From Eledone cirrhosa (Eukaryota), in NCBI GenBank assembly GCA_964016885.1, contig OZ024743.1:144956001-145020000 (forward strand): a stretch of 64,000 nt of DNA. Direction: 5' to 3'. The position numbers and the translations under genes were made by a program. Numbering within the stretch: position 1 is the stretch's first letter; every line of letters starts with the position of its first letter. The notes beneath the pieces were generated by a model. The model made no database searches and had not been told where the DNA came from. It saw nothing but the letters and a program-made list of their open reading frames with translations. Of this stretch, positions 12,211 through 63,531 are shown piece after piece.

Positions 12211-12400
12211 AGGGCGGTGGATTGGCAGTATCGGTAGAGGGTCGGACGCCATGCTTTCCAGCTTAGTTACGTCCCTTTACGATCTGAGTTCAAATCCCGC
12301 CGAGGTTGACTTTGCCTTTCATCCTTACGGGGTCGATAAAATAAAGTACCAGTAATGCACTGGATAATTGCTGGCCTTGTGCCTAAAGTAGAAACAATTA
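12211..12400 (+). mobile_element. tRNA-derived SINE (family 1, short 3' variant) with a Meta/MESC-like core
   Basis: A box TGGCAGTATCGG, B box GAGTTCAAATCCC, core GTTGACTTTGCCTTTCATCCTTACGGGGTCGATAAAATAAAGTACCAGT and an ATT tail. 14-bp TSD ATTATTTTCTACAG at 12199-12212 and 12397-12410. Confidence 0.9.
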
Positions 12401-31097: not shown

Positions 31098-33063
31098 TCA
31101 GAAGCTCCCGCGTCTTGCGACGCATGAGGCAATCAAAGTGTTCCACCGCGTTCGGTCAGCAGCCAGTTGCACAGCGTCCCGCCGTTGTCTGTTTGTCGCT
31201 CGCAGGTCCCTCTCAACTTTTTTGCGCCAGTTCATTTTGGGTCGCCCTCTCCGTCTGCTTCCCTGTGGGTTCCATTTAAGTACTTGGTTCGCCAGTCTCT
31301 CCGGGGAAAATCTCAAAGCGTGCCCAAACCAGCCCAGGCGTCGCCTGCAGATGGCAGAAGAGACCAGCTGCTGGTTGGTGCGATTCCTGACTTCCTGGTT
31401 TGTTACATGATCACTCCATTTAATCCCCATCTTTCGCAGACACCTGGAATCGAATGCGTCCAACTTCTTCTCTTGGCTGGTCTTAAGGTGCCATGTTTCA
31501 CTTCCGCACAAGAGTGTGGACAGCACGTTGCTGTTGTAGAATCTCATCTTTATTTTGAGGGTGAACTTCCTGCTCTTCCAGATCTTGACAAGCTGGTTAA
31601 ATGCTGCTGAAGCCTTTCCCATTCTACATTGCAATTCACTGTCCATGGCGCCCCCATTGTTCCTAGGTAGGTGAAGTTGTCCACTATCTCCACCTCCCCC
31701 TGTTCAATGAAAACACTAGTTGGTGATGGGTGTGTCCCAGATAACATGCTTTTGGTCTTCTAAGCACTGATATTGAGACCTAAGCTTCCTGCTTCGACAT
31801 TGATATTGTTCATAATGATTTGCAGGTCAGCTGTGCTCTCTGCAAGTGCAACAATATCGTCCGCAAAGTCCAGGTCAGACAACTTTTGCTCTCCCACCTA
31901 AGATATACCCTGGTCTTTAGACGCTCTTCTTAGTACCCAGTCAATGGCTATGGCAAAGAGAATTGAGAGAGCGAGCAACCTTGACGCACACCAGTAACCA
32001 CCTCAAACCAGTCACTGTAACTATCCTTTGTCCGTATGCAGCACTTGGAGTTTGCGTAAATCTGTTTGATTGTCGAAATGACTTTCTGGGGCAGACCATA
32101 CTCATGCATGATGCTCCAGAGTGACGGCCGATGAATGCTATCGAATGCTTTGGAGAAATCGATGAAGCTGACGGCGAGGGGCCTCTGGAATTCGTTGTAC
32201 CTCTCAATGATGCGGCGTAACGTAAAGATCTGCTCTGCGCAGGAACGTTTTGGTCGGAACCCTGCCTGTTGTTCTCGCAGTTTCCGGTCTACCATGCCAC
32301 GTATGCGGTTCAGGATCATCAGACAATAGTCCTTCCCTGGTATGGAGAGAAGTGTCACTCCCCTCCAGTTGTCACAATCGGCAAGGTTGCCCTTCTTGGG
32401 GATACAGACAACCGCTCCGTTTCTCCAATCTTCTGGGACTTCACCCGTGTTCCACACAAGATTACATAAGTGGCCCATCCACTTGACCATGCTTTCGCCT
32501 CCTGACTTCAGCATTTCAGCAGAAATGCCATCCATACCTGGTGACTTGTTATTCTTAAGGGTTTTGATGGCCATGCGGACTTCCTTCTCGGTGAAGTCAT
32601 CAGTATTGATAGGCAACAAACTAGTAGGTTCCTTAGTGTCTGCTGGCACACGTGGCTCCGGTCGGTTGAGGGCTTCCTTGAAATGTTCAGCCCATCTGAC
32701 TAACTTTTCTTCACCCTTGAAAAGCAGCGTACCATCTTTCGCTTTCACCGGGCCTGAGTTAGCTCTAGAGCTGCCGGTGATTTTCTTGGCAATTTGGTAC
32801 ACAGAGCGCATGTCATTGCGTGCCGCAGCTGCTTCCGCCTCCTCTGCCTTACCCTCAATCCACATTCGTTTGTCCTTTTGGGCGCTGCGTTTCACCTCCT
32901 TGTCCTTATCAACATACTGCTGATATACCTTGATGGCCTCTGGGGTAGTGGCATGCCTCTGCTGGTGTAGGGCTTTCCTTTCATTAATCAGCTGCCAGGG
33001 TTCCTGTAGCCCAGGATTTCTTCCCCTGCAGCTTCCATGGTCTTCTTCATTTCCTCCCACCAA
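31098..33063 (-). pseudogene. RTE reverse transcriptase and C-terminal region, interrupted by frameshifts and stops
   Basis: Motifs KSPGMDG, IPKKG, NWRGVTLLS, QAGFRPKRSC, IDFSKAFDSI, GVRQGC, DLDFADDI (about 31855-31878), FTYLG, LGWFGH and RRRGRP. Confidence 0.88.
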
Positions 33064-34049
33064 TTGAGCGAGCCTGGTTCAGACTCCTCAAGGACAGCAA
33101 ATCTGTTCCTCAAAGCAGCCTCGAACTGTGCTTCCGTGTCACCGTTCTTCAGCTTGGTAGTGTCAAAACGCCTTGTAGTGAATGCTCTCTTCTTCTGCTT
33201 CCTCAGTCTGATTTTAAGTTTGGTAACAGACAGATAGTGGTCACTGCAGAGATCTGCGACCTGGTAGACTCGGACGCCCTGCAGGCAAGGAGCTCTCCAA
33301 CTTGGGCTAATCGCAATGTGGTCTATTTGCGTCTTGGTCCTGTGGTCGTTCGAAGCCCATGTGACCTTGTGGATGTTCTTGTGGTCAAATAGTGACGAGC
33401 CGATTTTCATATTGTTCATGGCACAGAACTGGACAAACCTGTCCCCGTTGTCCGTGCGATTTCCATAAGCATGGGGGCCAAGGACATGTTCAAAGACAAC
33501 CCTGCTTCCCCCGATCTGTGCGTTCATGTCTCCCATGATGATCAGGATGTCATGACGTGGGGTTTTGTTTACAACATCTTGTAGTTGCTGGTAGAAAGCG
33601 TCCTTGTCATCATCGTTATGTTCGTTGGTTGGAGCATAGCACTGAGCTATGGTGACCTTTGCGTGTGATGTGGTGAATCTTGCTGTCATTAAGCGTTCGT
33701 TGATAGGAGTCCACTCCTCAAGGGCACCACTGGCAGCCCTGTCCATGATGATTGCAACTCCATCTCGGTGGGTCCCGTTCTGACGGCCTGAGAACAGGAT
33801 GGTCTTGTTTTCATGGACAAACTTCCCAAAGTCAGTCCAGCGGACCTCGCTGAGGCCCAGGATGTTAATTTTGTAGGCCTCCATTTCTCCGATAACTTGC
33901 GGAAGTTTGGATGGTTGGTACATAGTTCTTATGTTCCAATATCCAATACGTGTGGTTGTTTTTGCAGACAGAATTCTGGTCCTCAGGATGTCGGCTTCCT
34001 CATTGAGACTTTCGCCGACACCCGTCATACAATCTCCGGTTAGAGACAA
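32988..34049 (-). pseudogene. RTE APE endonuclease portion
   Basis: Motifs WNIRT, GLSEVRW, QCYAPT, MGDMNA, NGDRF, QIDH and SDH. Confidence 0.88.
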
Positions 34050-34481
34050 CCGTTCTCCCGACTGCTTGGAGTTTAAATCTGATGTACTATGAATTGTTTT
34101 CGTAGCAGGAGAGTTTTTCCGGATGGCACATCCAAAATATAGGGACCAATAAATATTTCTAAGATAATATTATCTCTGGTTCTTTCTTTTCCCTTTTTCT
34201 TCCTCTCCTCCTCTCAATCTCATCTCCGTTTATCCTCCCGAGTTTGTTGCCTGAATATATACAACCTCGTCTCCATTACAGCGGCTTCCTAAACGCAACG
34301 AATGTTCATTTTCTGCAATGTCTCAAGAAAGCCACCACACTCTCTTATATATATTCCCCTCCCCGCAAAAAAATCTAATTGACTAAACCCATGCTTTTTC
34401 TCCAGAAATGTTTTTTATTTTTTCGTTCCTTCCTCTTCTCACTTTCTGTCTTTCTATTTAATTTTGTTTTTCTCATTCCAA

Positions 34482-34515
34482 CCTCTGATGAAGGACTGTC
34501 GCCCAAAACCTTAGG
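34482..34515 (+). ncRNA. Decayed minimal hammerhead at the end of a PLE remnant
   Basis: CCT-CTGATGA-aggactgtcgccc-aAAA-cc-TT^AGG, matching the common PLE pattern CTGATGAAGG...CCGAAACGTT. Confidence 0.5.
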
Positions 34516-34556
34516 ACTCTTATAGTAACTCTAATGCTCTGGTGGATGGAGGATGG

Positions 34557-35585
34557 ATCCACCAGAGCATTAGAGTTACTATAGACTACCCAAGTAGACA
34601 CCCCAACCATCGATTACCTGTACTAGACACAGAGCTCTGGTTAGATACAATTAACAACCAAAAACAAATCCTCCATTCCCATTATGCCAAACCCATGACT
34701 TCCAAACATCTGATCCACCGAAACTCGGCCATTTCGGACCATACCAAAATCAACATACTGATTGCGGATTTGGTACGGGTGATGAGAAATGTGTCCCGCA
34801 TGTGCAACCCCGAAGAACTAGAGAGACACATACAACACTTCATCCACCGTATGCAGTTCTCTGGCTACAATCAGAGAGATAGAATCAGAGTATATAAAGG
34901 AGCCAGAACCAAATGGGAAAAAATGGTAAATAATGACATAAATGGGACCTGCCCCTTGTATAGGAGCAAATTTTGGAATAGAATAGAAAGAACTAGGAAC
35001 AAGGCCAATAGAATAAACTCATGGTATGATAGCAATAAATACCAGAGTGTAATGTTCATCAATACAACCCCTAGAGGCGAACTAGCCTACAAATTTAGAA
35101 GGGCCCTAAAGAAACATAATCTCAATATTAAGATAGTAGAAAGACCTGGTACCTCCGTAAAAACACTTATTAGCAAGACATACCCGTTCCAAAGACCCTC
35201 ATGTATAGATAAGAAATGTATAACCTGTAAAATAAGCCCCCATATTAACTGTAAAACTAGAAATGTAGTATATAGCATAAGATGTACTGAAGGACAATGT
35301 AGAAACAAAAATATAGTGTACATAGGTGAGACAGCTCGTAGTATAGGGGAACGAATAAATGAACACTGGCGAGACCTCCAAGATAATAAAGAATCATCTG
35401 TGCTCTACCAACATGCTAAGATAGAACACAGGGGTAAATTAGAGAGCATAGAAATAAAAATAGAATCCACACACAAGAAAGACGCAATGTTTAGGCAAAT
35501 TACAGAGGCAGTAAGCATAAAAGAATTAAAACCAAAATTAAATAGAAAATATGAGTGGAACAGCAACATCACAACTTACAATTAA
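34557..35585 (+). CDS. PLE RT thumb/linker and GIY-YIG endonuclease (5'-truncated)
   Basis: Motifs DYPSRHPNHRLPVLDTELW, HYAKPM, FSGY, CIDKKCITC...C, VVYSIRC..C...YIGETARSIGERINEH, H...EH, RQITEAV and PKLNRKYEW. Confidence 0.88.
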   Translation: MHQSIRVTIDYPSRHPNHRLPVLDTELWLDTINNQKQILHSHYAKPMTSKHLIHRNSAISDHTKINILIADLVRVMRNVSRMCNPEELERHIQHFIHRMQFSGYNQRDRIRVYKGARTKWEKMVNNDINGTCPLYRSKFWNRIERTRNKANRINSWYDSNKYQSVMFINTTPRGELAYKFRRALKKHNLNIKIVERPGTSVKTLISKTYPFQRPSCIDKKCITCKISPHINCKTRNVVYSIRCTEGQCRNKNIVYIGETARSIGERINEHWRDLQDNKESSVLYQHAKIEHRGKLESIEIKIESTHKKDAMFRQITEAVSIKELKPKLNRKYEWNSNITTYN

Positions 35586-40792: not shown

Positions 40793-41168
40793 ATATATAT
40801 ATACACACATTTAACTGAACACATATCTAAAGAGAAAATGAATGATCATAGGGTTCTGACGTTAACAGCTAGATTTGCAATAAAAAATATATATTGTTCA
40901 TATTAGGTTGATATTATACGACAATCATGTAAAGTAGGATTTGTACGTAATCTGTTCTTTATTTCTCATGGAGGCAATATCCTACAAAGTTTGCCCTTTC
41001 CTTCTAACGTCAATACCATAATTTGTTTTATTTCTGAATTGTGATATATTTTATTGAGGTTTATAAAATAACTATTTGACATTGACTGTAAACGATTCGC
41101 TCGATTGCATTTCTCTCTTAACTTTTTTAGCTTTGTCTATTATTATCATCATTATTATGATTATTATG

Positions 41169-41222
<54 letters not shown>

Positions 41223-41228
41223 GTTATT

Positions 41229-42843
41229 CCTTGAATCTCAGTCATTGATGTTGGTTAACTGGAAAGTCCGTTGGATTGAATATCAAGCCACTACCTGCAG
41301 CCTCAGATATTCAGGACGTATCGGAGGGTTCTTGCTGTTCCAAGCAAGCATGCCTTTTGAAGCGTTCCAAAAAGCGTGAAGGGGCCGATTTTCTTTAACC
41401 ATCCCTGGAAACTTTTGGAGATAGTCCCCAGTGCGCCTATGACAATCGGGATCACTTTGACTTCATGGCAGTTCCAGATCCTTTTCACCTCCCACTTTAG
41501 GTCCTGGTATCGGTTAATTTTCTCCCTCTCCTTCTCTTGCACTCTCGTGTCGAACGGGCAGGCCACATCCACAATCAGGCACGATCTTTTTTCTTTGTCC
41601 ACAACCACCAGGTCAGGTCTATTGTGTTCCAGTTTTTTGTCCGTCTGTATCCTAAAATCCCACAGCACCTTCACCTGATTGTTCTCCATCACCGCCTCTG
41701 GCCTATGCTCATACCATTTCTCAGAATGTGGTAGATTGTTTACTTTGCACAGGTGCCAGTGGATCACCCTGCCCATCACATCGTGTCTCCAGCCCTTATA
41801 GTGGGTCTGGGCTAGGTGTTTACACTCGGACACAATGTGAGCCACAGTCTCCTCTCTCTCTCCACAGATCCTGCACAGTGGGCTAGCCTCCTCCTTGTAG
41901 ATATGGTGCTTCAACCACTTCGTTTTGAGGGCCTGCTCCTGCGCAGCCATTAGCATTCCTTCTGTAGCCTTTTTGAGGTCTCCTCTTCTCAACCAGTTCC
42001 ATGTCTGTGGATCTCTAAATTCAGTTTTCTCAAAGAAGGTACTATGAAGGGATTTTCCCTTAAGGCTGCTCTTCCTCCTTGATGTTATTTCCTCCCCGGA
42101 CATCCCCTGGCCTACTGTCCCCTCCTTCAGTACAGTTCTGAGCATTGGCTCCTTACTATAGGTCACGTATTTGTATAGGTTGTTTTTCTCCATCTGAACA
42201 CAGTCCTCTATGCTGATAAGACCTCTTCCACCCTCAGATCTCCTTAGGTAGAGTCTATCGACATCACTCCTCTTTTGGAACATGTTGTAGATAGTCAATA
42301 GCTTCCTAGTCTTCCTATCCATTTCTTTTTGTTCAGCAACATTCCATCTCAGAATTCCCGCACTGTACCTAATAATAGACACAGCTCGGGAATTTACTGC
42401 GCTTATGGCATTTCTGCTGTTCAGATGTGACTTCAATACGCTCCTTACTCTCCGAATGTATTCAGTTCTTAACAATTCCTTCATTTTTTTGTTCTTTATG
42501 CCATCAGCCTCCAGAACGCCCAAATACTTGTATCCTTCCTCAGAGTCAATTTCCTTTATCATCTCACCTGTTGGTATCTGGATCCCGTTACTTCTGCTCA
42601 ACCTACTCCTCTTCATCACAATGACTCCACATTTACCAATACCAAACTGCATACATATATCACTGCTAAAAATACGGACAGTGTCAACAAGCACATCCAA
42701 CTCCTTCTCACTTTTCCCGAAGAGCTTAAGATCGTCCATGAAGAGGAGGTGATTGATGGTAAGCTCTCCCCTTCCCAACTTGTATCCTGCTCTCACTTTT
42801 CGCAGCATAATGGTCAAGGCCATCAGGGCAAGGACAAACAACA
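41229..42843 (-). mobile_element. 5'-truncated R4/Dong-like RLE non-LTR retrotransposon, copy 1, in (TAA)n
   Basis: Contains the RT C-terminal half, CCHC and PD-(D/E)xK endonuclease. A 74-nt 3'UTR runs directly into (AAT)n on the element strand, and ATT repeats lie on both sides. Confidence 0.9.
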
Positions 42844-42844
42844 A
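41303..42844 (-). CDS. Truncated RT-RLE polyprotein (513 codons open, no native start)
   Basis: Motifs HLLFMDDLKL, YKYLG, GGRGL, CRICGEREETVAHIVSEC, RHD, NRPDLVVVDK, IVDVACP, EREKINRYQDL and PIVIGALG. Confidence 0.9.
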   Translation of the reverse strand: MLFVLALMALTIMLRKVRAGYKLGRGELTINHLLFMDDLKLFGKSEKELDVLVDTVRIFSSDICMQFGIGKCGVIVMKRSRLSRSNGIQIPTGEMIKEIDSEEGYKYLGVLEADGIKNKKMKELLRTEYIRRVRSVLKSHLNSRNAISAVNSRAVSIIRYSAGILRWNVAEQKEMDRKTRKLLTIYNMFQKRSDVDRLYLRRSEGGRGLISIEDCVQMEKNNLYKYVTYSKEPMLRTVLKEGTVGQGMSGEEITSRRKSSLKGKSLHSTFFEKTEFRDPQTWNWLRRGDLKKATEGMLMAAQEQALKTKWLKHHIYKEEASPLCRICGEREETVAHIVSECKHLAQTHYKGWRHDVMGRVIHWHLCKVNNLPHSEKWYEHRPEAVMENNQVKVLWDFRIQTDKKLEHNRPDLVVVDKEKRSCLIVDVACPFDTRVQEKEREKINRYQDLKWEVKRIWNCHEVKVIPIVIGALGTISKSFQGWLKKIGPFTLFGTLQKACLLGTARTLRYVLNI

Positions 42845-42873
42845 TTATTATTATTATTATTATTGTTATTATT

Positions 42874-43368
42874 CTTTGAGTCTCAGTCATTGATGTTAGT
42901 TAACTGGAAAGTTTGTTGAAATGAATATCAAGCCACTACCTGCAGCCTCAGATATTCAGGACGTATCGGAGGGTTCTTGCTGTTCCCAGCAAGCATGCCT
43001 TTTGAAGCGTTCCAAAAAGCGTGAAGGGGCCAATTTTCTTTAACCATCTCTGGAAACTTTTTGAGATAGTCCCTAGTGCGCCTATGACAATCGGGATCAC
43101 TTTGACTTCATGGCAGTTCCAAATCCTTTTTACCTCCCACTTTAAGTCCTGGTATCGGTTAATTTTCTCCCTCTCCTTCTCTTGCACTCTCGTGTCGAAT
43201 GGGCAGGCCACATCCACAATCAGGCACGATCTTTTTTCTTTGTCTACAACCACCAGGTCAGGTCTATTGTGTTCCAGTTTCTTGTCCGTCTGTATCCTAA
43301 AATCCCACAGCACCTTCACCTGATCGTTTTCTATCACCGACTCTGGCTTATGCTCATACCACTTCTCA
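42874..43368 (-). mobile_element. 5'-truncated R4/Dong-like element, copy 2 (RLE domain and 3'UTR only)
   Basis: Near-identical to the 3' end of copy 1. ORF 42948-43337 repeats the RLE peptide with few substitutions, and (ATT)n flanks both sides. Confidence 0.9.
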
Positions 43369-43420
<52 letters not shown>

Positions 43421-43633
43421 GAATGCCATGGTTGACGGAGGCTCGGCTCTGTAAGGTATAGTAATTTTTAACCGTTAAAACAATTGTAAATTGTTTAAAA
43501 CTTGAACCAAATTGTTGATAAAGACACCCTCCTCCTCGTGAGAGGGGTCTTTCTGTCCGTTATTTGGCCCTTCGGGGTTAAATAACCAGTTATTGGGGTT
43601 TTGTACCCAGAATTTCATTTTAAACAAAAAAAC

Positions 43634-45727
43634 ATGGCTACGAAAAAGAAATTTCGTACGTCACTCCCACTCATTCCGTCTTCTTCTTCCTCAATCATCA
43701 CTACAGCAGAGAGAAGATTGTCTCTCTCCCTCCCTTCTTTAAATGTGTCTCTCTCCCTCCCTTCTCTTTCGCAAGCGACGAAAGAAAAGAAAAGTCTCGT
43801 GCAAAGCGTGCAAGGTTTCTCCACGACGACGACGACAGCGACGAAACAGGTGTGCGGGAAATACGAAAACCCAGTTCATTCGTCTGACGTCAGGAATAAT
43901 AGCAGTAGCAGCCGTAATAACAACAGCAACAGTGACAATGAAAACAACAGTAGCAGCCGCAACAGCATCACCAGCAGCATAAACAACAACAGCATTAGCA
44001 GCAGCAACACCAACAACAACCACAGCAACAGCGGCGGAGGCAGTAGTCGTAGTACCTGCAGCAACAACAAAAGTACCAGCAGCTCTGACGACAACAACAA
44101 CAGCAGAGAAAAACCAATCTCATTTGCAGGTATTGCGAAAAACTTGGAAACAATCCTCATAACAAATGAGGAATTAGAGGAAGCGAAGAAGATGGTGACA
44201 AAGAACGGACACCGAGCAATCTGCAAGGCAGCGAAAAATTTTTTCGAAACCCAAGAGCACTGTACGGTCACGTACCGTACAGTAAGTACAAAATCCCGTA
44301 GGGTGGAAAGAGCCACAGAGGCCCAAATACAAAAAGCCTTGGGGTCTGTGTGGCAGAGGAAAACGCACATCACCCGAGGCAAAAAATACGCCACCGTAGA
44401 CGTACTTTTTGCCACACCCCAGGAGGCAAAGGCCCAATCAGTAGTGACCCTAAGGAGCGAGGAAATGGTGTTGGTGCCCTCCTACTGCGGGCAAAAAATT
44501 GTGAGGGTCAAACTGACCCACGTCCCCCCCGGAATGACCCCTTCTTGGCTGGCCGCGTCTGTCCTCGTCGGAATCGAGGACAAAACAACTGTACTGCAAG
44601 TACAGAAAAAAGTAAGAGAAGATTGGGTCGGCTCCTCCATTGAGATGCTAATCCAAACCAACCAGGAGTGCATCGAAGCTATCCCGGATGTGATAGACTT
44701 CGATAACGGCACTCAACTGCCCATAAGTGTTGAGGGCAAACGCCCGAAATGCTTTCGCTGTGGATCGAAGACTCACCTCAGGGCCTTCTGCAACGAGAAG
44801 ACCCTGAGAAAGGAGAAAACCCCCCTCCTTCCGAATCCGGCTCCACGGCTACCAGCAACAGGACAAGAGGCAACCAGGAACGATAGGTCCGTGGCACCCA
44901 TACCCACTCCACGGAAATCAAAGACAGCAGCAGCAGTGGAAATATTAACAACAACAGCAATACCAAATGCAGCTGCAACAGAGACTCCAGTGCAAACATC
45001 ACCAACAACAACAAGTGAAAGAGTGGAGCTGGTACCCCTCCCCGACCTTACAGAATCAGACATGGAGTGTGAGGTGGGAGAGGGATGGCAAAAGGTCGCA
45101 AGAAGGCACAAACGCAGAAGCAGCGCATCGTCGCCTTTGAAAAGGGAGGAAAGAAATGAGAAAAGGGTAAAGTCTACTGCAAAGAGACCCACAGCAGCAA
45201 CACCACCAACACCATCACCACCCACACCAGCACCACCATCACCACCGGCGACAACCCCACCGCCAACAACACCTTCAACACCACCACCACAAGCACCAAC
45301 ATCGCAAACACAACAACAAAACACACACACCCAGCAACAACGACAAGAAAATAGCAGAACCCCACCCCACCCCCAGAAAAACAAATGCACGGCAATAAAC
45401 ACACACAACAAGAAACTAATGACTTACATAATTGAACACACAGACATTTCACAACAGGACTACATAATACCAGCACCAATCAAAACGCCAACTAACATAA
45501 GACTGCTAAAAATAGCACAGAAACAATACACAAACATTAAAACGAAATTCCCCAACGCAGTTGGTGATTTCAGGGACCTAGGAGGAACCATCAATCGAAG
45601 AGTATATTCAGACATTCTCTTAGAAGAGCCGACGACCAGCCGAAGGGACGATTCAACGGTCCCTTCACCAGACGATCAAGTGAAAAGGGATGTAAAAACC
45701 ATCCCTCCTCTACCAAAAGTACGGTAA
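43634..45727 (+). CDS. Tx1/L1 ORF1p, gag-like nucleic-acid-binding protein (about 697 aa from ATG 43634)
   Basis: Open frame with a zinc knuckle CFRCGSKTHLRAFC (CX2CX4HX4C), an S/N-rich N-terminal low-complexity tract, a P/T-rich C-terminal tract and basic patches (RRHKRR). Confidence 0.88.
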   Translation: MATKKKFRTSLPLIPSSSSSIITTAERRLSLSLPSLNVSLSLPSLSQATKEKKSLVQSVQGFSTTTTTATKQVCGKYENPVHSSDVRNNSSSSRNNNSNSDNENNSSSRNSITSSINNNSISSSNTNNNHSNSGGGSSRSTCSNNKSTSSSDDNNNSREKPISFAGIAKNLETILITNEELEEAKKMVTKNGHRAICKAAKNFFETQEHCTVTYRTVSTKSRRVERATEAQIQKALGSVWQRKTHITRGKKYATVDVLFATPQEAKAQSVVTLRSEEMVLVPSYCGQKIVRVKLTHVPPGMTPSWLAASVLVGIEDKTTVLQVQKKVREDWVGSSIEMLIQTNQECIEAIPDVIDFDNGTQLPISVEGKRPKCFRCGSKTHLRAFCNEKTLRKEKTPLLPNPAPRLPATGQEATRNDRSVAPIPTPRKSKTAAAVEILTTTAIPNAAATETPVQTSPTTTSERVELVPLPDLTESDMECEVGEGWQKVARRHKRRSSASSPLKREERNEKRVKSTAKRPTAATPPTPSPPTPAPPSPPATTPPPTTPSTPPPQAPTSQTQQQNTHTQQQRQENSRTPPHPQKNKCTAINTHNKKLMTYIIEHTDISQQDYIIPAPIKTPTNIRLLKIAQKQYTNIKTKFPNAVGDFRDLGGTINRRVYSDILLEEPTTSRRDDSTVPSPDDQVKRDVKTIPPLPKVR

Positions 45728-45762
45728 GTGGTCTTTCCCATCTTTTCCACTCTATTTTAAAC

Positions 45763-48700
45763 ATGACCTCACTCAGAATAGGCAGCATAAATGCGCGTGG
45801 CTTGGGGTCATCATGGAAGCAGGGTCACCTGCTCAACGACCTCAGGTCACTAAACATAGATGTAGTGGCCATCAGCGAGACCAGAATCTCCGAAGCACGG
45901 GCCTTCGCACCGATCTTCGGCGGCTACGATGTGTACGCATCTCCCAGCCGTCCTGGATCGGGTGGAGGAGTTGCTGTGCTTTTTCGGAGAGGTTTGGATC
46001 TCGCCATACGGGCCATCTTCCTGGACCCAGAGGGTAAGCTGGTGGTGCTGGACGTGACCAGCGGAGACGGGCAAGCTTTCAGGCTAGTGGCCGTCTATGC
46101 CCCGACAGGAGCAGGGCGGCCTGATTTCTTCCGGCGTCTGGAGACCTTTCTTGGAACGTCCCGCTCTTTAGTGTTAGTGGGCGACTGGAACGGGATCTTA
46201 GATGCACGCTGGGACTGTGTGGGATTAGCGGATAGGGGTGGAGGGTGCAAGAGCCTCACCAACCTGCTCAGGCGTTTTGAACTGTCTGACAGGTACCGAT
46301 TGGATTTCCCGAATGTGCCAATGTGGACTTGGACAAACCGCATAGGGTCATCCAGATCATATCTAGATAGAGTATTTTGTAGGGAAATAGATAGGTCTAG
46401 CATACGCTGTCCACAATTCAAGATAGTCAGCTACACGGACCACAAATTCGTGATCTGTGTGCTTGACCTAGATAGGCTTCATAGACGAGGACCCGGCTAC
46501 TGGAAGCTAAACGCGTCCTTACCAGCGCGCAAGGCCTACAGAGACCGGATTAGCGAACTAGTTAAGCGGGCGTTGACGGGGGCCATCGTCAACAACAAGT
46601 GGTGGTTTGCTCTGAAAAGAGCGATTAGAATAGAATCGATTAGGTTTAGTAAGGCTTTAGCAATAGAGAAAAATAGAGCAGAGGGAGAACTAGTTAGAAA
46701 ATTAGACGAGGCGCTTAGCAAAGGCATTGCGACCGACGTGCTTGCGGCGAAATTGGCCCTTGACCAATTCTTCAATGCAAAGCACGAAGGCTGCGTTGTC
46801 AGAGCTAGGGTGCGTGCTCTCAGACACGAGGGGACGAAAGCCGTTCAATGGGCCCGAGTGGCGGAGGCGCGTCGTGGCAACAAAGCCACGATCCGGTCTT
46901 TGGTGGACCACGACGGGCGCATGCTACTCGATCCCGGGCAAATGTGTGAAGTTTTTCAGCGACACTTCGCTCAGCTGTTCGGGGGCAGCGGGGGGCCGGG
47001 TAGAGGGATGGACTTTAGTGTCTACCTCGACGGACTGCCGCGGCTCTCGGCCACTGAGGCGAAGTGTTGCGAAAAGCCGATAACAGCCGCTGAAGTAAGG
47101 GAGGCCATGACTGGCTGCACAAGGGATAAATCGCCTGGTTTGGATGGTCTGCCCTATGAACTTTACGTACAGATGCCAGACTTGTTCGGAGGCCTCTTGG
47201 CGGACGTCTACTGCAACTGGCAACAGAACGGGAGAATTCCCAGTTCTGTGAGCCGAGGAGCGGTGGCACTGCTGAGAAAGGATCCGAACAAGGGGGATAA
47301 CATAGAAAATTTCCGGCCCATAACTCTGCTAAACACAGAGTTTAAGATTTTGGCCAAGGTGCTAGCAAAGAGGTTGGCGCTTGTCGTTGGTGGTCTGGTG
47401 GGAGAGGCGCAGACATGCGCCATTCCCGACAGATCCATCCACGACAACCTCCACCTCATGCGATACATCGTAGAGAGGGTAGCTAGCGAACCTGGCACGG
47501 GTGGGTCCTTGATCAATTTAGATCAGTCGAAAGCTTTCGATAGGGTCGACCATCGTTACCTAGCGGCAGTCCTGAGGGCGGCTGGCTTTGGGCCCGTCTT
47601 CAGAGGCTGGATCGCTGCCATGCACAGCGACATCTGCTCTGTGGTGAGAGTGAACGGTCACCTGTCGGAACCGTTCAACATCATGCGCTCGGTCCGCCAA
47701 GGATGTCCCCTCTCGTCCCTCTTGTACGTATTGACTCTCGAGCCATTACTGCACAAACTGGAGACGTTGAGGGGGGTCCCGCGCGAACTAGGATGCGGAA
47801 GATCCGTATCAGCATATGCGGACGATGTCACCGTAGTGGTGTCGAACGCCAAACACATCGAGGCGATCGGCACTACACTAAGAGAATACGAAGCGGTGAC
47901 AGGAGCAATGATCAACCAGGAAAAGTCAGTGGGCCTGCAGCTCGGCACCTGGAGAGGCATGTCCATGCCGTCCAACAGCGTCGTCGGACGCTGGACGGAC
48001 GGACCGGTTAAATTGCTAGGGGTCTGGTTCGGTCCGGACCTCCAGACGGACAAAAACTGGGACGAGGTGACGAGCAGGGTGGCTTCTCTCACCCAGAAAT
48101 GGGCCGAGAGGAAGCTATCCCTGAAAGGTCGAGCTGAGGTGGCTAACGCGTACATCGCGTCCGTCATCTGCTACCGCCTGACCGTCGTACCTTGTCCTAA
48201 GCCTCGCCTGACTGTGCTGGAGCGTTTGCTCTTTCGCTTTTTGTGGAAGGGACGCGCTCCGATGGTCAGGCGGTCCATCTGTTGTCAACACCCGCTACGT
48301 GGAGGGCTGGGCATGCCGTGGCTGATGATGCGCAGGCACGCGCTCAGGCTACGACATCTCCACCTCTTCCTCGACGGTGATCAGGTGTGGTCGCCGTTTG
48401 CTAGACGCGTATTTCCCCAGCTCGTTTCCTTGACGGAGCTGCAGTCCTGGGTCAAGCGAAGACCGAGAGGGAGCGCCTGGAGACTGGAATGTCTTCAGGC
48501 GCTCACAGCCCTCGACCAATCGGGCAATGTGATCGGTGGAAACTCCACCTCGGCGTTCTATAGAGGATTAGTGGAGGGGAAGAGCGACGACGTACTTGGG
48601 GCAACTCTAGGCGTCGACGAAAATCAACTAGCCAATCTCTTCGGAAGAACTTTCGGGCCAGGGCCTATGGACAACTTCCAGAAATCTCTGGCCTGGCAGT

Positions 48701-49182
48701 GCTACCGAGGAGCCTTGCCAGTTCGGGATAAACTCTACAGGCATGGAGGTGCCGTCAGCCGGGCATGTCCGAGATGCGCGCAGGGCGACGAAACCGTCCT
48801 GCACGCACTCGTCCAGTGTCCGAAAATTGCTGACTTGTGGGTTTATGTCGAACACCTGCTGTCGCGTTTAGGACGGATCCAGCTATCATCTGAGTCTATC
48901 GTGAGGATTGCCCCGCCCTCCTCCTTTAGCCGGGAAGGGCAGGCAGTTTTTATCTGTCTGGTGGCCATGGCGAAAGAGATAGTATGGTGGACACGTTTGA
49001 AAGGGCTGAAGACGAGCACTTACCTCTTCGGTGATGCTCTGATTGACTTTTTCAAATTTCATTTGAAAAGGAAAATCAGAGTAGAGAAGGAAGTGCTCTC
49101 TTCCCAGCATTTTGTTGAAAGATGGGTGAGAGAAGCAAGAATGGCCCGAGTGAATGGGCCTACTCTGAGTATATATCTGTAA
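45763..49182 (+). CDS. Tx1/L1 ORF2p: apurinic-like endonuclease, reverse transcriptase and C-terminal CCHC zinc finger (1139 aa)
   Basis: APE motifs SINARG, ISET, VYAP, GDWN, SYLDR, TDH. RT motifs KSPGLDG, FRPITLLN, LDQSKAFDRVDH, VRQGCPLS, YADD, LLGV. Zinc finger CPRC...ETVLHALVQC. No stops or frameshifts. Confidence 0.96.
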   Translation: MTSLRIGSINARGLGSSWKQGHLLNDLRSLNIDVVAISETRISEARAFAPIFGGYDVYASPSRPGSGGGVAVLFRRGLDLAIRAIFLDPEGKLVVLDVTSGDGQAFRLVAVYAPTGAGRPDFFRRLETFLGTSRSLVLVGDWNGILDARWDCVGLADRGGGCKSLTNLLRRFELSDRYRLDFPNVPMWTWTNRIGSSRSYLDRVFCREIDRSSIRCPQFKIVSYTDHKFVICVLDLDRLHRRGPGYWKLNASLPARKAYRDRISELVKRALTGAIVNNKWWFALKRAIRIESIRFSKALAIEKNRAEGELVRKLDEALSKGIATDVLAAKLALDQFFNAKHEGCVVRARVRALRHEGTKAVQWARVAEARRGNKATIRSLVDHDGRMLLDPGQMCEVFQRHFAQLFGGSGGPGRGMDFSVYLDGLPRLSATEAKCCEKPITAAEVREAMTGCTRDKSPGLDGLPYELYVQMPDLFGGLLADVYCNWQQNGRIPSSVSRGAVALLRKDPNKGDNIENFRPITLLNTEFKILAKVLAKRLALVVGGLVGEAQTCAIPDRSIHDNLHLMRYIVERVASEPGTGGSLINLDQSKAFDRVDHRYLAAVLRAAGFGPVFRGWIAAMHSDICSVVRVNGHLSEPFNIMRSVRQGCPLSSLLYVLTLEPLLHKLETLRGVPRELGCGRSVSAYADDVTVVVSNAKHIEAIGTTLREYEAVTGAMINQEKSVGLQLGTWRGMSMPSNSVVGRWTDGPVKLLGVWFGPDLQTDKNWDEVTSRVASLTQKWAERKLSLKGRAEVANAYIASVICYRLTVVPCPKPRLTVLERLLFRFLWKGRAPMVRRSICCQHPLRGGLGMPWLMMRRHALRLRHLHLFLDGDQVWSPFARRVFPQLVSLTELQSWVKRRPRGSAWRLECLQALTALDQSGNVIGGNSTSAFYRGLVEGKSDDVLGATLGVDENQLANLFGRTFGPGPMDNFQKSLAWQCYRGALPVRDKLYRHGGAVSRACPRCAQGDETVLHALVQCPKIADLWVYVEHLLSRLGRIQLSSESIVRIAPPSSFSREGQAVFICLVAMAKEIVWWTRLKGLKTSTYLFGDALIDFFKFHLKRKIRVEKEVLSSQHFVERWVREARMARVNGPTLSIYL

Positions 49183-49441
49183 ATTAAAGGTGGAAAACTG
49201 GGAGAGGGCACTTGCCTTGGTGGTCAGGGTCATTGTGGCTTTTTACTGGGCTTTCACCACAAATGTCCCTCCGAAGTCTCCCCCCTATTGGGGAATTTTT
49301 CATTGTTATTTTCATTGTTATTTTTGTTACATCCTCTGTTTTTGATTTTTACACGCAGAAATGCCCATTTGTACCGTCCTGCATTGTCCTGCACTGTCCT
49401 TAATGTCTACTTTATGTAAACCCTTGTGGTTAATAAAGAAA

Positions 49442-49517
<76 letters not shown>

Positions 49518-59008: not shown

Positions 59009-59993
59009 TACATACATAATATATGTACAAGAAAAGTCAGAAAAGATAACACGGGAGAACAATACAGTACAATGATATGTATTGTTTAATGCTTGGTATA
59101 GCAGGAATAGAGTGTTAGATATATCTGCACAAACTGTACATTTGTTTGTTCGTATATACATACATGTATAGACATACATGTATAGACATACATGTATATA
59201 CATACATGTATATACACACACACACATACACACACACACAAACACACATATATATATATATATATACAGTGGGTGTGAAAAGAAACGCTCAATAGAGCGT
59301 TTCTTTTCACACCCACACCATGTGTGTGTTTATATATATGTATACATACATACATACATACATAATACATACATACATAATACATACATAATACATACAT
59401 AATACATACATACATACATACATAATACATACATACATACATACATAATACATACATACATACATACATACATACATACATAATACATGCATAATACATA
59501 CATAATACATACATACATAATACATACATAATACATACATACATGATACATACATAATACATACATAATACATACATACATAATACATACATAATACATA
59601 CATACATAATACATACATAATACATACATACATGATACATACATAATATACATACATACATAATACATACATAATACATACATACATACATACATAATAC
59701 ATACATACATACATACATACATACATAATATATGTACAAGAAAAGTCAGAAAAAACAACACGGGAGAACAATACAGTACAATGATATGTATTGTTTAATG
59801 CTTGGTATAGCAGGAATAGAGTGTTAGATATATCTGCACAAACTGTACATTTGTTTGTTCGTATATACATACATGTATAGACATACATGTATAGACATAC
59901 ATGTATATACATACATGTATATACACACACACACATACACACACACACAAACACACATATATATATATATATATATATACAGTGGGTGTGAAA
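59009..59993 (+). repeat. Direct duplication of about 272 bp (59009-59280 and about 59718-59993) separated by a hairpin and a TACA/TAA compound microsatellite
   Basis: The two copies are nearly identical (GTACAAGAAAAGTCAGAAAA...CAGTGGGTGTGAAA). Confidence 0.92.
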
Positions 59994-62741
59994 TGCAACA
60001 TAGAGAGCAACTTCACACAACACCAGGAAGACCTAAAGAAAATGTTAGAGAGAAGATTTGGAGATACAAAATTTAAAACTTTGAACTCCAAATTACACCA
60101 GTTGAAACAACAACTCACAGCTACAACAGAAAGACTGAAATATAAGTCAACAGCACATAAACGACAAGTGCTAAATAGATTGTTTGCCAGAGATCCTAAA
60201 TCAGTTTATCGCAGCTTCGGTGGCAAAAGCTCAATCTCTGTAAATGACACCCCTTCAAAAGAACAGGTTGAGAGCTACTGGAGATCTGTATGGGAAACGG
60301 ATGATGGATTCAACAGACAAGCTAATTGGCTAAAAGAACTGGAACAGGACTACTGCCAACATGTCCAGACAAAACAATGACATAGATGGGTCAATACTGG
60401 AAACAGCTCTACAGAAAATGTCGAATAGGAAATCGCCAGGCCCAGACCTCATTACAGGATACTGGTTGAAGAATTTCACTTTCTATCGGCAAGATCTCAT
60501 ACGGCTGTTTACAGAAACCATTAAGGGCACACAAGAACTGCCCAGATGGTTATCAACTGCCTCTACTCTCCTCATTCCCAAAAATAGCCAAACGACCCTT
60601 GCTAAAAATTACCGCCCAATTGCCTGCCAAAACATCATGTATAAATTATATACTGGGTGCCTTAACCTGTTCTTACAGGATCACTGTGCTACCAACAACA
60701 TCATAACACCTGAGCAAGCTGGTGGAAAGAGGGAGGTGTGGGGTTGCATAGATCACCTACTAACTAACAAAATGATTCAGGAAAAAACAACAAAGAATCG
60801 CAGAAACATGACTGTCGTGTGGCTGGACTATCAAAAACCATTTGATAGTGTACCTCATGGGTGGATTGTTAAGGCTTTACAGTTAGCTAAAGTCCCACAA
60901 CCATTGGTAGCTGCTGTTGAACGCCTGACCAAGAACTGGTACACCAGTTTGATCCTTAGAGGTGAGAAGGAGCAGGTTAAGACTGATAAGATACATTACC
61001 AGAAGGGCATCTTTCAGGGTGATAGCTTGTCAGTGCTACTCTTCGTTCTCTCACTGAATCCACTATCTTACCTACTCAGGAAACAAGGTCGACAAAGAAG
61101 TGGGACCAGAAGTATCTCCCATCTTTTCTTTGTTGATGACCTGAAGTTGTATGGGCCAAATATCAATGACATCAAGAAACAATTGGACCTCATTACACAA
61201 TTTTCAACCGAGATCAAAATGAAATTTGGTGAGTCCAAGTGTGCATATTTGGCAGTAAAACGTGGAAGAGCTGTGCCCTCCTCTAGAAATCTAGAGATGA
61301 ACGGCCTGACAATACAACCTCTGCAGTCAGGTGACAACTACATATATCTTGGACAGGATGAGAATGTCAGATATGATGGACCCATAAATAAGGAGAGAAC
61401 CAGAACTGAATACCTCAGAAGAGTAAAGAAAATATGGTCATCAGAACTGTCAGCATACAACAAATACATTGCCCACAATACTTATGCTGTGCCAATTCTA
61501 ACGCCAACATTTGGCCTACTGAACTGGTCATTGCAAGAACTAAGTGAGATGGATGTTAGAACTCGAAAACTTCTCAGTGTTACTGGGAACTTTAACATCA
61601 ATGGTGATGTGGATAGGCTATACTTCTCACGCAAGGAAGGTGGCCGGGGTCTAAAATCAATATTAACAACATATGAGACCCGGATAGTGACACTGAAGCA
61701 ACACCTTCAACAGAGGAAAAAGGTTGGCAACCATCTTGCCCAGGTTTATGACCATGAAAAAAGAAATATCATTAGAATAGCGACTGATCTGGAGGAGAGA
61801 TATGGAATAAAGCCCGATATAAATCTCTCACCCAGAGAAATCGGAAGATCCTATTCAATGTTCAAACAAGAAAAAAAAATTGACCAATTTACAGAAAAAG
61901 TTGTGCATGGATACTTGAGGCGTAAAACACAGACCATAGAGGGGATAAACCACTCAAAAAGCCTGGCATGGAGTTCCGACAAGTTTATGACATCACACCT
62001 TGAGGGATATCTCTATGCAATACAGGAACAAGAACTCCCTACCAAATATCTGCTGCACAAAAGAGGAGGGCCAGCAGCTGACAATAAATGTAGGCTATGT
62101 AAAACAAAGATCGAGGATGTAAGCCACATTGTTGCCAGCTGCGAAAGAATGTCATCTCGCTACTACCTCCCCATGAGACACGATGGGATAGCTAGAACCA
62201 TCTGGAACGCACTTCGGAAAACAAAATCAACAACAAACGAGGAAGAATATATTGAGACAGATGGCACTAAGGAATACTGGTGGAACCTGAAAATAAAAAC
62301 TGCCACCAAATTAAAGCACAACCGGCCTGATATTGTAGTTTGGGACCACACATTGAAAACGTGTTCTGTTGTGGAGATCAGCTGCCCACTTGATGTAAAC
62401 GTTGTCAGAAAAATACAGGAGAAGGAGGACATCTACGGACCATTGATGAGGAGTTTACAAATCCAGTATCCAAGATACACCTTTAGCTTCATACCCATCA
62501 TTATTGGTGCTACGGGTTATATACCAACCCGCTTGGACCAAAGTATGACTGAACTTGGATTTGCGGACAAAAAGCGCAGCTCCCTAATTCATAGTCTACA
62601 AATGGCTGCGATAGCTGGCACCTTCAAAATTTGCGAAACATTCTTGCGATTCAAGGGATGACAATTTCTTTTCTTTTACAACCTTGCCACCAGGAAGGTG
62701 GCCGGTCAAAAAATATACTCAAAATTAAGAGAAAGAGAAAA
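59994..62741 (+). mobile_element. 5'-truncated RLE-type (R4/Dong-like) LINE of a second family, ending in a (TACA)n compound tract
   Basis: The upstream frame (to 60380: LNRLFARDPKSVY...YWRSVWE...WL) is joined by one frameshift to ORF 60361-62661. An 80-nt 3'UTR carries the hairpin GCCACC-AGGAA-GGTGGC and is followed by ACATACATAAT repeats. Confidence 0.88.
60361..62661 (+). pseudogene. RT-CCHC-RLE coding region (766 codons open, frameshift near 60375, 5' truncated)
   Basis: Motifs KSPGPD, YRPIAC, LDYQKPFDSVPH (the usual A is replaced by P), GIFQGDSLS, FVDDLKL, GGRGL, CRLC...HIVASC, RHD, NRPDIVVWD, VVEISCP and EKEDIY. Confidence 0.88.
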
Positions 62742-63531
62742 CATACATAATACATGCATAATACATACATAATACATACATAATACATACATAATACATA
62801 CATACATAATACATACATAATACATACATACATGATACATACATATATACATACATACATAATACATACATAATATACATACATACATAATACATACATA
62901 ATACATACATAATACATATATAGATACATACATACATACATACATACATACATACATACATACATACATTATTTGCTATATCTAATACTCTACACAAAGG
63001 CAATAATATGTTTGTTGTAGGTTAGATTTGTGTAGACATGTCAGAAGTAACGTTCACATCAGATAAACTTTGGAAGATGACAAATCTGAGAAAAGTATTT
63101 TGAAAACAGCAAATGTGAGCCTAAAACAGATATTATCTGTCCATCAAAAGCTACTTTCGGACTTGAAATAGCAGTCTTCTAGATACGCGACGCATTATCT
63201 ATATCTTTGCTTCCAGGAACATCGATTTTACACGTCTTGGTCTCTTTTCGTAAGACTACATATATACCATATAAGATATTTAGTTTCAAAATTATTTTCT
63301 ACTCTTAAATGTTTAAAAATATATTTACTATAGTGAAAAGTAAAGTGATACTATCTATTAATCAATCTCCCAATCTTTCCATTTTACTCCTACCACTTTT
63401 TGTATATATGAGTGTGTGAGGAGCTGACGTATGTTTATCCATCCATATATATATATATATAAATATATATATATGTGTGTATGTGTGTGTGTTTTATTGA
63501 AAAATCATCACAAACACACACATATATATAT

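Follow-up and report, generated by a model that had tools for sequence, protein, structure and literature searches.

How does a retrotransposon come to have a microsatellite on each side: by inserting into such tracts, or by carrying them? The question is raised by a stretch of 64,000 nucleotides (nt) from Eledone cirrhosa (assembly GCA_964016885.1, contig OZ024743.1, positions 144,956,001 to 145,020,000 of the forward strand; hereafter the window), in which a full-length long interspersed nuclear element (LINE) of the L1/Tx1 type, called family A here, lies between two tracts of ATT repeats. A survey of the 3.0-Gb genome supports the conclusion that this LINE inserts into pre-existing (ATT)n tracts, because the junctions at both ends, the truncated copies, and the comparison of filled with empty sites all agree.

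Structure and age of the family

The features of the element, in window coordinates, are as follows.

43370..43420, + strand: 5′ junction tract, (ATT)17, joined in phase as ATT|GAATG
43421..49443, + strand: full-length L1/Tx1-type LINE of family A, 6,023 nt
43421..43633, + strand: 5′ untranslated region (UTR), with no ribozyme match in Rfam
43634..45727, + strand: open reading frame 1 (ORF1), 697 amino acids, with low-complexity ends and a core like ZCCHC3 RNA-binding domains (a lead only)
44750-44791, + strand: CCHC knuckle of ORF1, at amino acid 373
45763..49182, + strand: ORF2, 1139 amino acids
about 45763-46470, + strand: apurinic/apyrimidinic-type endonuclease (APE) of ORF2 (Exo_endo_phos)
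47293-48024, + strand: reverse transcriptase (RT) of ORF2 (RVT_1)
48682-48840, + strand: zf-RVT domain of ORF2
49183..49443, + strand: 3′ UTR, ending in AATAAA (49432-49437) and then GAAATC, without poly(A)
49419..49431, + strand: predicted hairpin of 4 bp with a CUUGU loop that lies 16 nt from the junction, common to older families and a short interspersed nuclear element (SINE)
49444..49515, + strand: 3′ junction tract, (ATT)24

The ends at 43421 and 49443 are those at which copies elsewhere align to positions 1 and 6023 of the element. GAATG directly follows (ATT)17, and the 3′ terminus AATAAAGAAATC runs directly into (ATT)24. Both ORFs are open throughout, and ORF2 carries the endonuclease motifs GDWN and TDH at amino acids 140 and 225 and the RT motif YADD at amino acid 685. 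The best solved-structure match of ORF2 is human L1 ORF2p (amino acids 5-855, E = 5e-52), and R2 matches at 1e-19. ORF1 has no Pfam match at 1e-3, and an Atlas match of its core to ZCCHC3-like clusters, with a score of 0.90, is a lead only towards RNA-binding domains. A search of the UTRs for ribozymes in Rfam returned only two microRNA matches at chance level.

Genome-wide, there are 2,413 exact LINE heads (24-nt pattern), within about 2,400-2,600 5′ ends overall, and 7,350 exact 3′ ends (26-nt pattern). Both ORFs are open in 30 of 66 near-full copies, a set of best matches that is biased towards young copies. The median pairwise distance among family A copies is 0.98%, and only 3 bases separate the window copy from a sister copy on another chromosome. 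Variants common to at least three copies fall on codon positions 1, 2 and 3 in 3, 10 and 40 cases, compared with 171, 151 and 180 for singletons. The closest named RT relative among the matches listed is from Argonauta hians (74%). A preliminary description made from the sequence alone had proposed uninterrupted ORFs with intact catalytic motifs, ATT at both ends in place of poly(A), and a young cephalopod family; each of these points is borne out by the present data. That the family is real, young, and target-biased is almost certain.

A sister family, B, shares 96% identity with family A in ORF2, has an ORF1 core only 51% identical, and carries a different 5′ UTR (family B and related loci: L170-L173, L085, L095, L090). 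The four family B copies inspected likewise begin directly after (ATT)n. At L090, a third upstream module is joined at the ORF2 start. Together with family B, this module suggests that ORF1 may have been swapped repeatedly between sister families. Older sister families, at about 75% identity, also terminate in ATT. Family-like sequence was seen in contig and read data of three organisms, with no usable junctions or RNA ends among them. In addition, a predicted tectonic-3-like protein of Octopus sinensis (P0048) has a short stretch that is 64% like the window ORF2 and is probably a transposable element piece within a gene model.

Insertion into pre-existing ATT tracts

All 77 distinct full-length 5′ junctions read ATTATT|GAATG, and the shortest perfect ATT run among them is 18 nt. 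In genome-wide pattern searches, 2,571 heads are preceded by (ATT)4, including 2,419 with (ATT)6, and of the 91 heads listed first, 89 (about 98%, matched by eye) also appear in the (ATT)4-preceded list. As background we used 20 evenly spaced 10-kb stretches, 200 kb in total, which contain six ATT tracts of at least 18 nt and in which 1.5e-4 of positions come after (ATT)4 in phase. The 5′ association is therefore not due to chance.

At the other end, (ATT)3 follows 5,749 of the 7,350 3′ ends (78%). The 30 best 3′ matches all continue into ATT, as the 30 best 5′ matches all come after an ATT run. When 3′ ends were instead taken in order of position (n = 30), 29 started with ATT and 21 had at least 12 nt of it; some copies have just one or two ATT units. 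No A-run was found at either these 30 ends or the 30 best-match ends. By the rule of Kojima 2015, under which one sequence type occupies more than 20% of flanks, the LINE is target-specific.

The ATT at 5′ junctions is insufficient by itself to establish a pre-existing target, because the 5′ tract of a full-length copy is probably partly borne by the element. Truncated copies and empty sites settle the matter. Among 24 truncated 5′ junctions, 13 adjoin at least 9 nt of ATT and seven adjoin at least 18 nt, against a background of 70 in 56,600 positions (0.12%) for the 9-nt threshold. Excluded from this set were one near-duplicate locus, copies with internal deletions, and three junctions that belong to other 5′ modules (family B or the third ORF1).

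Ordinary target-site duplications (TSDs) were sought where the target is short. Eighteen truncated copies were scored, from 20 stretches among 137 ends with only ATTATT. The TSD is 8-20 nt in 10 copies and 6 nt in three, and there is none in five. All 13 copies with a duplication have C or T immediately before it, whereas the ATTATT at its start reflects how the set was selected. LINE insertions also occur at isolated ATTAT sites (L295, L298, L315, L351), and one locus (L297) has an extra ATT unit at its 3′ junction.

Empty sites come from a host repeat. The variant ATT tract of two LINE arrays has 883 exact genome matches and is part of this repeat, in which the tract lacks the LINE in 30 of 30 sampled copies and is filled at several loci. 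LINE-free copies thus supply the empty allele, and the tract pre-exists the insertion. The idea that the variant tract had moved between loci in LINE RNA was rejected, since the tract belongs to the host repeat. At one nick site in the repeat, four truncated copies (L290, L347, L350, L352) have duplications of 8, 8, 18 and 20 nt, and array copies at that site have duplications of 51-54 nt. About one fifth of the sampled host-repeat copies (L180-L209) lack the usual right side and have a T-run with a second sequence instead.

Around the ATT tracts of 85 full-length copies, no unique-sequence TSD was found; in 20 of them, sequence from behind the 3′ tract is found again ahead of the 5′ tract, as an array spacer in 17 cases and as a low-complexity match in three.

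The proposal that the element inserts into (ATT)n is upheld by these results, and across copies neither random flanks nor ATT confined to 3′ ends was seen. The further proposal that the APE domain itself recognises ATT repeats stands only in part. A bias towards ATT tracts is evident, but recognition of the repeat is likely too strong a claim, since the short-target insertions and the SINE described below point to Y|ATTAT. Pairing by RNA or cDNA likely adds the preference for long tracts.

A SINE that shares the 3′ hairpin

A SINE of about 190 nt, which we take to be tRNA-type from its box A and box B, has 120,217 exact genome matches to a 29-nt 3′ pattern, and 22 of its 3′ ends lie in the 200-kb background. 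The window has 19 SINE matches, one of which is a full-length young copy with the 3′ hairpin (12211..12394, + strand). Among 30 position-ordered copies, 21 have a TSD of at least 8 nt (mostly 11-20), although two calls of 29 nt and about two others sit in repeats and are unreliable. All 21 duplications start with ATTA, and C or T precedes 19 of them. A long ATT tract is present at one of 30 SINE copies compared to 21 of 30 LINE ends. Because the SINE is rarely in long tracts, the endonuclease likely reads only the short Y|ATTAT motif. If one enzyme serves both elements, the long-tract preference of the LINE comes from pairing by its own RNA and cDNA. Both elements give TSDs starting ATTA(T), although the LINE set was chosen for ATTATT and the tract preferences differ.

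The SINE and all Tx1-like ends found have CTTGT, then 16-17 nt, then ATT. In an 11-row alignment, pairing holds in 84% of the cells of the hairpin stem, and three of the four pairs have changed on both sides. The CUUGU hairpin is absent from two other LINE 3′ ends inspected, both of which are (AAT)n ends of opposite sense. A shared 3′ stem-loop, the mark of a stringent LINE-SINE pair, is thus present here, although it is short and carries moderate weight. Overall, a Tx1 lineage probably drives this SINE.

A less probable explanation is that a LINE other than family A mobilises the SINE, either an older Tx1-like sister or a member of another clade. The SINE stem is indeed closer to those of the older sister families than to that of family A, and the difference in tract preference fits this view. 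However, the two other LINE ends inspected lack the hairpin, and the loop with its spacing is common to all Tx1-like ends found. An older, laxer sister is the main alternative partner.

Head-to-tail arrays and a probable route of 5′ completion

The LINE also forms head-to-tail arrays of at least 12 copies (C11), 10 copies (C1), five copies (C2) and four copies (C4), the C11 count being a lower bound because the array ends lie beyond the stretch followed. Spacers of 30-160 nt separate the copies, and the spacers of a locus, all of which stop at the next head, form a nested series of suffixes of a single tract particular to that locus. Their starts differ by ATT unit within one array, with five starts at C11 and three at C1. 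For 19 of 31 informative spacers, the spacer recurs in the 5′ flank of the copy itself; most unmatched spacers are explained by a later insertion that shortened the flank. One locus (L351) has a 50-nt duplication, 30 nt of it unique, that reaches the head of the resident copy.

Adjacent copies also share sequence at their 5′ ends. An identical 5′ run of at least 1.2 kb (1.2-5.1 kb) is present in 11 of 44 adjacent array pairs and in seven of 6,296 dispersed pairs, with pairs of fewer than five differences or less than 5 kb of overlap dropped. Past the crossover, three of these 11 pairs have no upstream neighbour, seven have a dispersed copy as a closer match than the upstream neighbour (a generous comparison, made with the best of about 130 dispersed copies), and one is a tie. 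Three tandem copies have one truncation point in common, yet are about 1% apart. Two copies are identical in the array at C2:188.05 Mb and two are one base apart in the C11 array, although most array members differ at 5-80 sites. For most pairs, we therefore rejected the idea that tandem neighbours are simple duplicates.

Two array features are of separate interest. The first copy of the C1 array (L324) consists of the initial 2.1 kb alone, fused to the spacer, with 1.4 kb identical to its neighbour; this shape could reflect either internal priming or a deletion. Elsewhere, a three-copy array with no homologous resident has a SINE fragment of about 60 nt duplicated on its two sides, which is ambiguous between a long TSD and local 3′ transduction.

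The simplest reading of the spacer duplications and shared 5′ runs is that the cDNA was completed on a resident copy. We consider such neighbour-templated completion of the 5′ end quite probably the main route to arrays.

It is unlikely that the endonuclease alone accounts for these observations by reading long (ATT)n and making in-register cuts in the two strands at a distance of about 18-21 nt, with no RNA leader or pairing. A founder insertion in the host repeat fits a duplication of 18-21 nt, the TSDs of truncated copies extend to 18-20 nt, and the long-tract preference holds even for truncated copies. However, second-strand ends in short-target copies vary in sequence and distance, yet every one of the 77 full-length junctions is in a single phase. 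Such a stagger is also unable to yield duplications of 30-160 nt that stop exactly at the resident 5′ end, and it does not fit the use of isolated ATTAT sites.

Still less favoured is an origin of the arrays by unequal crossover or gene conversion at the DNA level, or by assembly artefacts, instead of retrotransposition; as the main array route, this is already disfavoured. The identical and one-base pairs noted above fit such an origin, as do long 3′ runs in a few adjacent pairs. In contrast, spacers that start at varied ATT units are beyond the reach of recombination, and upstream-most copies with native flanks have exact duplications of 50-160 nt. Moreover, the parts past the crossover are 2-17 sites from the upstream neighbour, or that neighbour is absent, and most array members are separated by 5-80 differences.

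Finally, it is very improbable that the element carries both ATT tracts to short sites anywhere, with only apparent microsatellite targeting: the extra unit at L297 and SINE insertions at short sites fit this, but flank recurrences offer no unique-sequence TSD, host-repeat and Dong-tail tracts exist empty of the LINE, and some copies have only one or two ATT units at the 3′ end.

A model for insertion

Our preferred reading, to which we give a probability of roughly 0.7, is that the LINE inserts into ATT tracts, likely through a nick at Y|ATTAT, that its 5′ end is likely completed by pairing, which gives rise to arrays, and that the SINE likely uses the same machinery. The family A endonuclease would nick the bottom strand at 5′-ATAAT|R-3′, which is a pyrimidine-purine step like that used by L1 endonucleases. 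LINE RNA that reads into (AUU)n, as the 3′ junctions indicate, would then pair with the nicked strand, and copying would start precisely at the 3′ end, with no poly(A) involved, a process that would favour long tracts and their left edge.

The second end would be finished in one of three ways. Truncated copies receive the ordinary 8-20 nt duplications that are seen. Full-length RNA likely begins with about six AUU units, and its cDNA would join in phase after at least six ATT units; given the junction phase and the 18-nt floor, on balance we favour such a leader. If there is a resident copy immediately downstream, cDNA made from the RNA of a copy elsewhere could pair with it, and the 5′ part of the resident plus the spacer would be copied back to the nick to create the spacer duplications. 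This would account for 5′ ends that are identical over as much as 5.1 kb, for full-length products made from incomplete cDNA, and for arrays with at least 12 members. In trans, the ORF2 protein of family A or of an older sister would recognise the common CUUGU hairpin and mobilise the SINE.

Several observations weigh against this model. Among truncated junctions, 11 of 24 have no 9-nt ATT run (two come after (CTT)n, one after (AAT)n, three after nothing of the kind, and the others after one or two units), and 22% of 3′ ends lack (ATT)3, in part from later mutation. The 18-nt floor could be a long stagger instead, and a search of 20 loci for a full-length copy in a target without six ATT units, which would prove the leader, gave no decisive case. 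Within arrays, 5′ runs are also common to 14 of 87 non-adjacent pairs of one locus and long 3′ runs to three of 44 adjacent pairs, so that a degree of gene conversion or unequal exchange must be at work; nor are array pairs independent of one another. The hairpin has only 4 bp, was noticed post hoc in 11 related rows, and has a folding energy that is not significant (z of -1.0 and +0.4). The gap in tract preference between SINE and LINE also fits a different, laxer partner.

A bolder extension falls slightly short of even odds in our estimation. Self-completion by homology would be routine, truncated cDNA would be rescued as full-length mosaics, arrays would reach at least 70 kb, and ORF1 modules would be shuffled between sisters. 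The same lineage would drive the dominant octopus SINE through a 3′ hairpin in the style of L2/CR1, and the contrast between LINE and SINE would separate enzyme specificity from RNA pairing.

Relationship to known elements

Anatomy likely places the LINE in the Tx1 clade; no named Tx1 protein is present among the protein matches listed. It has two ORFs, an ORF2 nearest to L1 with APE, RT, and a C-terminal zinc domain, 5′ truncations, and short TSDs, all of which are features of the L1 group. The poly(A) and Transposase_22 ORF1 of mammalian-type L1 are missing, with no A-run at 60 ends and no Pfam match for ORF1. As in human L1, TSDs are 8-20 nt and ORF2p is the best structural match; unlike human L1, the LINE has a CCHC-type ORF1 and a strong target bias in addition to its lack of poly(A).

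Dong elements, which we presume to be of the R4, restriction-like class, have the same microsatellite target as the LINE, and Dong-like copies share tracts with it in the window and at many loci. However, the LINE has an N-terminal APE and two ORFs, whereas the Dong-like copies lie in the opposite orientation and have a single ORF and a restriction-like motif. Their targeting is convergent. Published work, cited here and below for the parts of each paper that were available, gives (TAA)n as the target of Dong and groups it with APE types in a review (PMC3812793).

In the Tx1 clade, ORF1 is of the type with an RNA recognition motif plus CCHC (PMC5203782); the window ORF1 has the CCHC, and the Atlas lead is to a possible RNA-binding core. 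The Tx1 families Kibi, Koshi, and those of crocodilians target the pyrimidine microsatellites (TC)n, (TTC)n, and (TTCC)n/(TTTC)n, respectively (PMC4494074, PMC3812793). The window LINE resembles them as an APE-type element with a microsatellite on both sides, and differs in its (ATT)n target and mollusc host, so that it works alike but is not a member. The available parts of those papers do not mention long arrays or neighbour-templated 5′ ends.

For completion of 5′ ends, there is precedent in tumour L1 insertions, in which cDNA copies nearby DNA in a templated manner resembling synthesis-dependent strand annealing (bioRxiv 10.1101/2024.08.27.596794); in the window LINE family, completion is common and extends up to kilobases. 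During R2 5′ joining, RNA holds about 28 nt of upstream target and the cDNA 3′ end pairs with the target (PMC13580325). The proposed pairing of the cDNA 3′ end to prime the second strand is similar, although the window LINE has an APE and not a restriction-like endonuclease, no ribozyme was found in Rfam, and its leader is conjectural.

Crocodilian SINEU was proposed to use Tx1-Mar enzymes because of a shared target, an argument made from target and heads and not from 3′ tails (PMC4494074), whereas the SINE described here is tRNA-type, exceeds 120,000 copies and has a 3′ hairpin in common with the LINE. Octopus vulgaris has 13 recently active L1-Tx1 families with 421 insertions, which probably overlap with the window LINE; the main text of that report, in the parts available, has no target analysis (PMC13282606). 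We found no (ATT)n-targeting Tx1 family and no Tx1 partner of an octopus SINE in the literature, but Repbase, Kojima and Fujiwara 2004, and the figure and supplements of Kojima 2015 were outside the search and may contain one. Neither is named in the available parts of PMC4640811, PMC4824008, PMC4758252, PMC3747384, PMC5753468, PMC5203782, PMC8967140 and PMC3531059.

Other elements in the window

Additional elements in the window are listed below.

42876..43368, - strand: 5′-truncated LINE with a restriction-like endonuclease, presumably Dong/R4-like, with its 5′ junction on the upstream tract of the window LINE
41229..42843, - strand: second 5′-truncated copy, presumably also Dong/R4-like, 95% like the first, with (TAA)n at 41138-41228 and 42844-42873
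60334-62661, + strand: 5′-truncated LINE with RT, zinc domain and restriction-like endonuclease motif, which runs out into (ACAT/ACATAAT)n and has a similar tract upstream (tracts at 59331-59733 and 62741-62969)
31098-34169, - strand: frameshifted APE-RT LINE with DUF6451, which we take to be probably RTE-like
34515-35585, + strand: open frame of 356 amino acids with no clear Pfam family and an A/C-rich repeat downstream

The Dong/R4-like LINEs often occupy one tract with the window LINE family in opposite orientation (L073, L076, L085, L098, and window 41138-43420), and such mixed clusters are two unrelated elements at one target. The LINE at 60334-62661 is possibly a second microsatellite-linked family of R4 type. 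Behind several LINE 3′ tracts (L069, L084, L129), the opposite strand carries yet another element, which terminates in (AAT)n.

Implications

LINEs of the APE type that target microsatellites are known, and their targeting mechanism has been called not well understood (PMC3812793). The thousands of young copies described here, with their empty sites and likely partner SINE, constitute a natural experiment that separates endonuclease preference from RNA pairing. The arrays document how LINE 5′ ends are finished, which is the least understood step, and point to a route by which duplications of kilobase size, mosaics, and numerous full-length copies can arise. Since it is small, nicks at a defined site and does not need poly(A), the APE may also serve as an integration tool, albeit one with many sites and not a single one, because (ATT)n is abundant. 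SINEs make up 11.6% of the O. vulgaris genome (PMC13282606). If the link between the LINE and the SINE is true, it would name a likely driver for a repeat class that forms about one tenth of octopus genomes.

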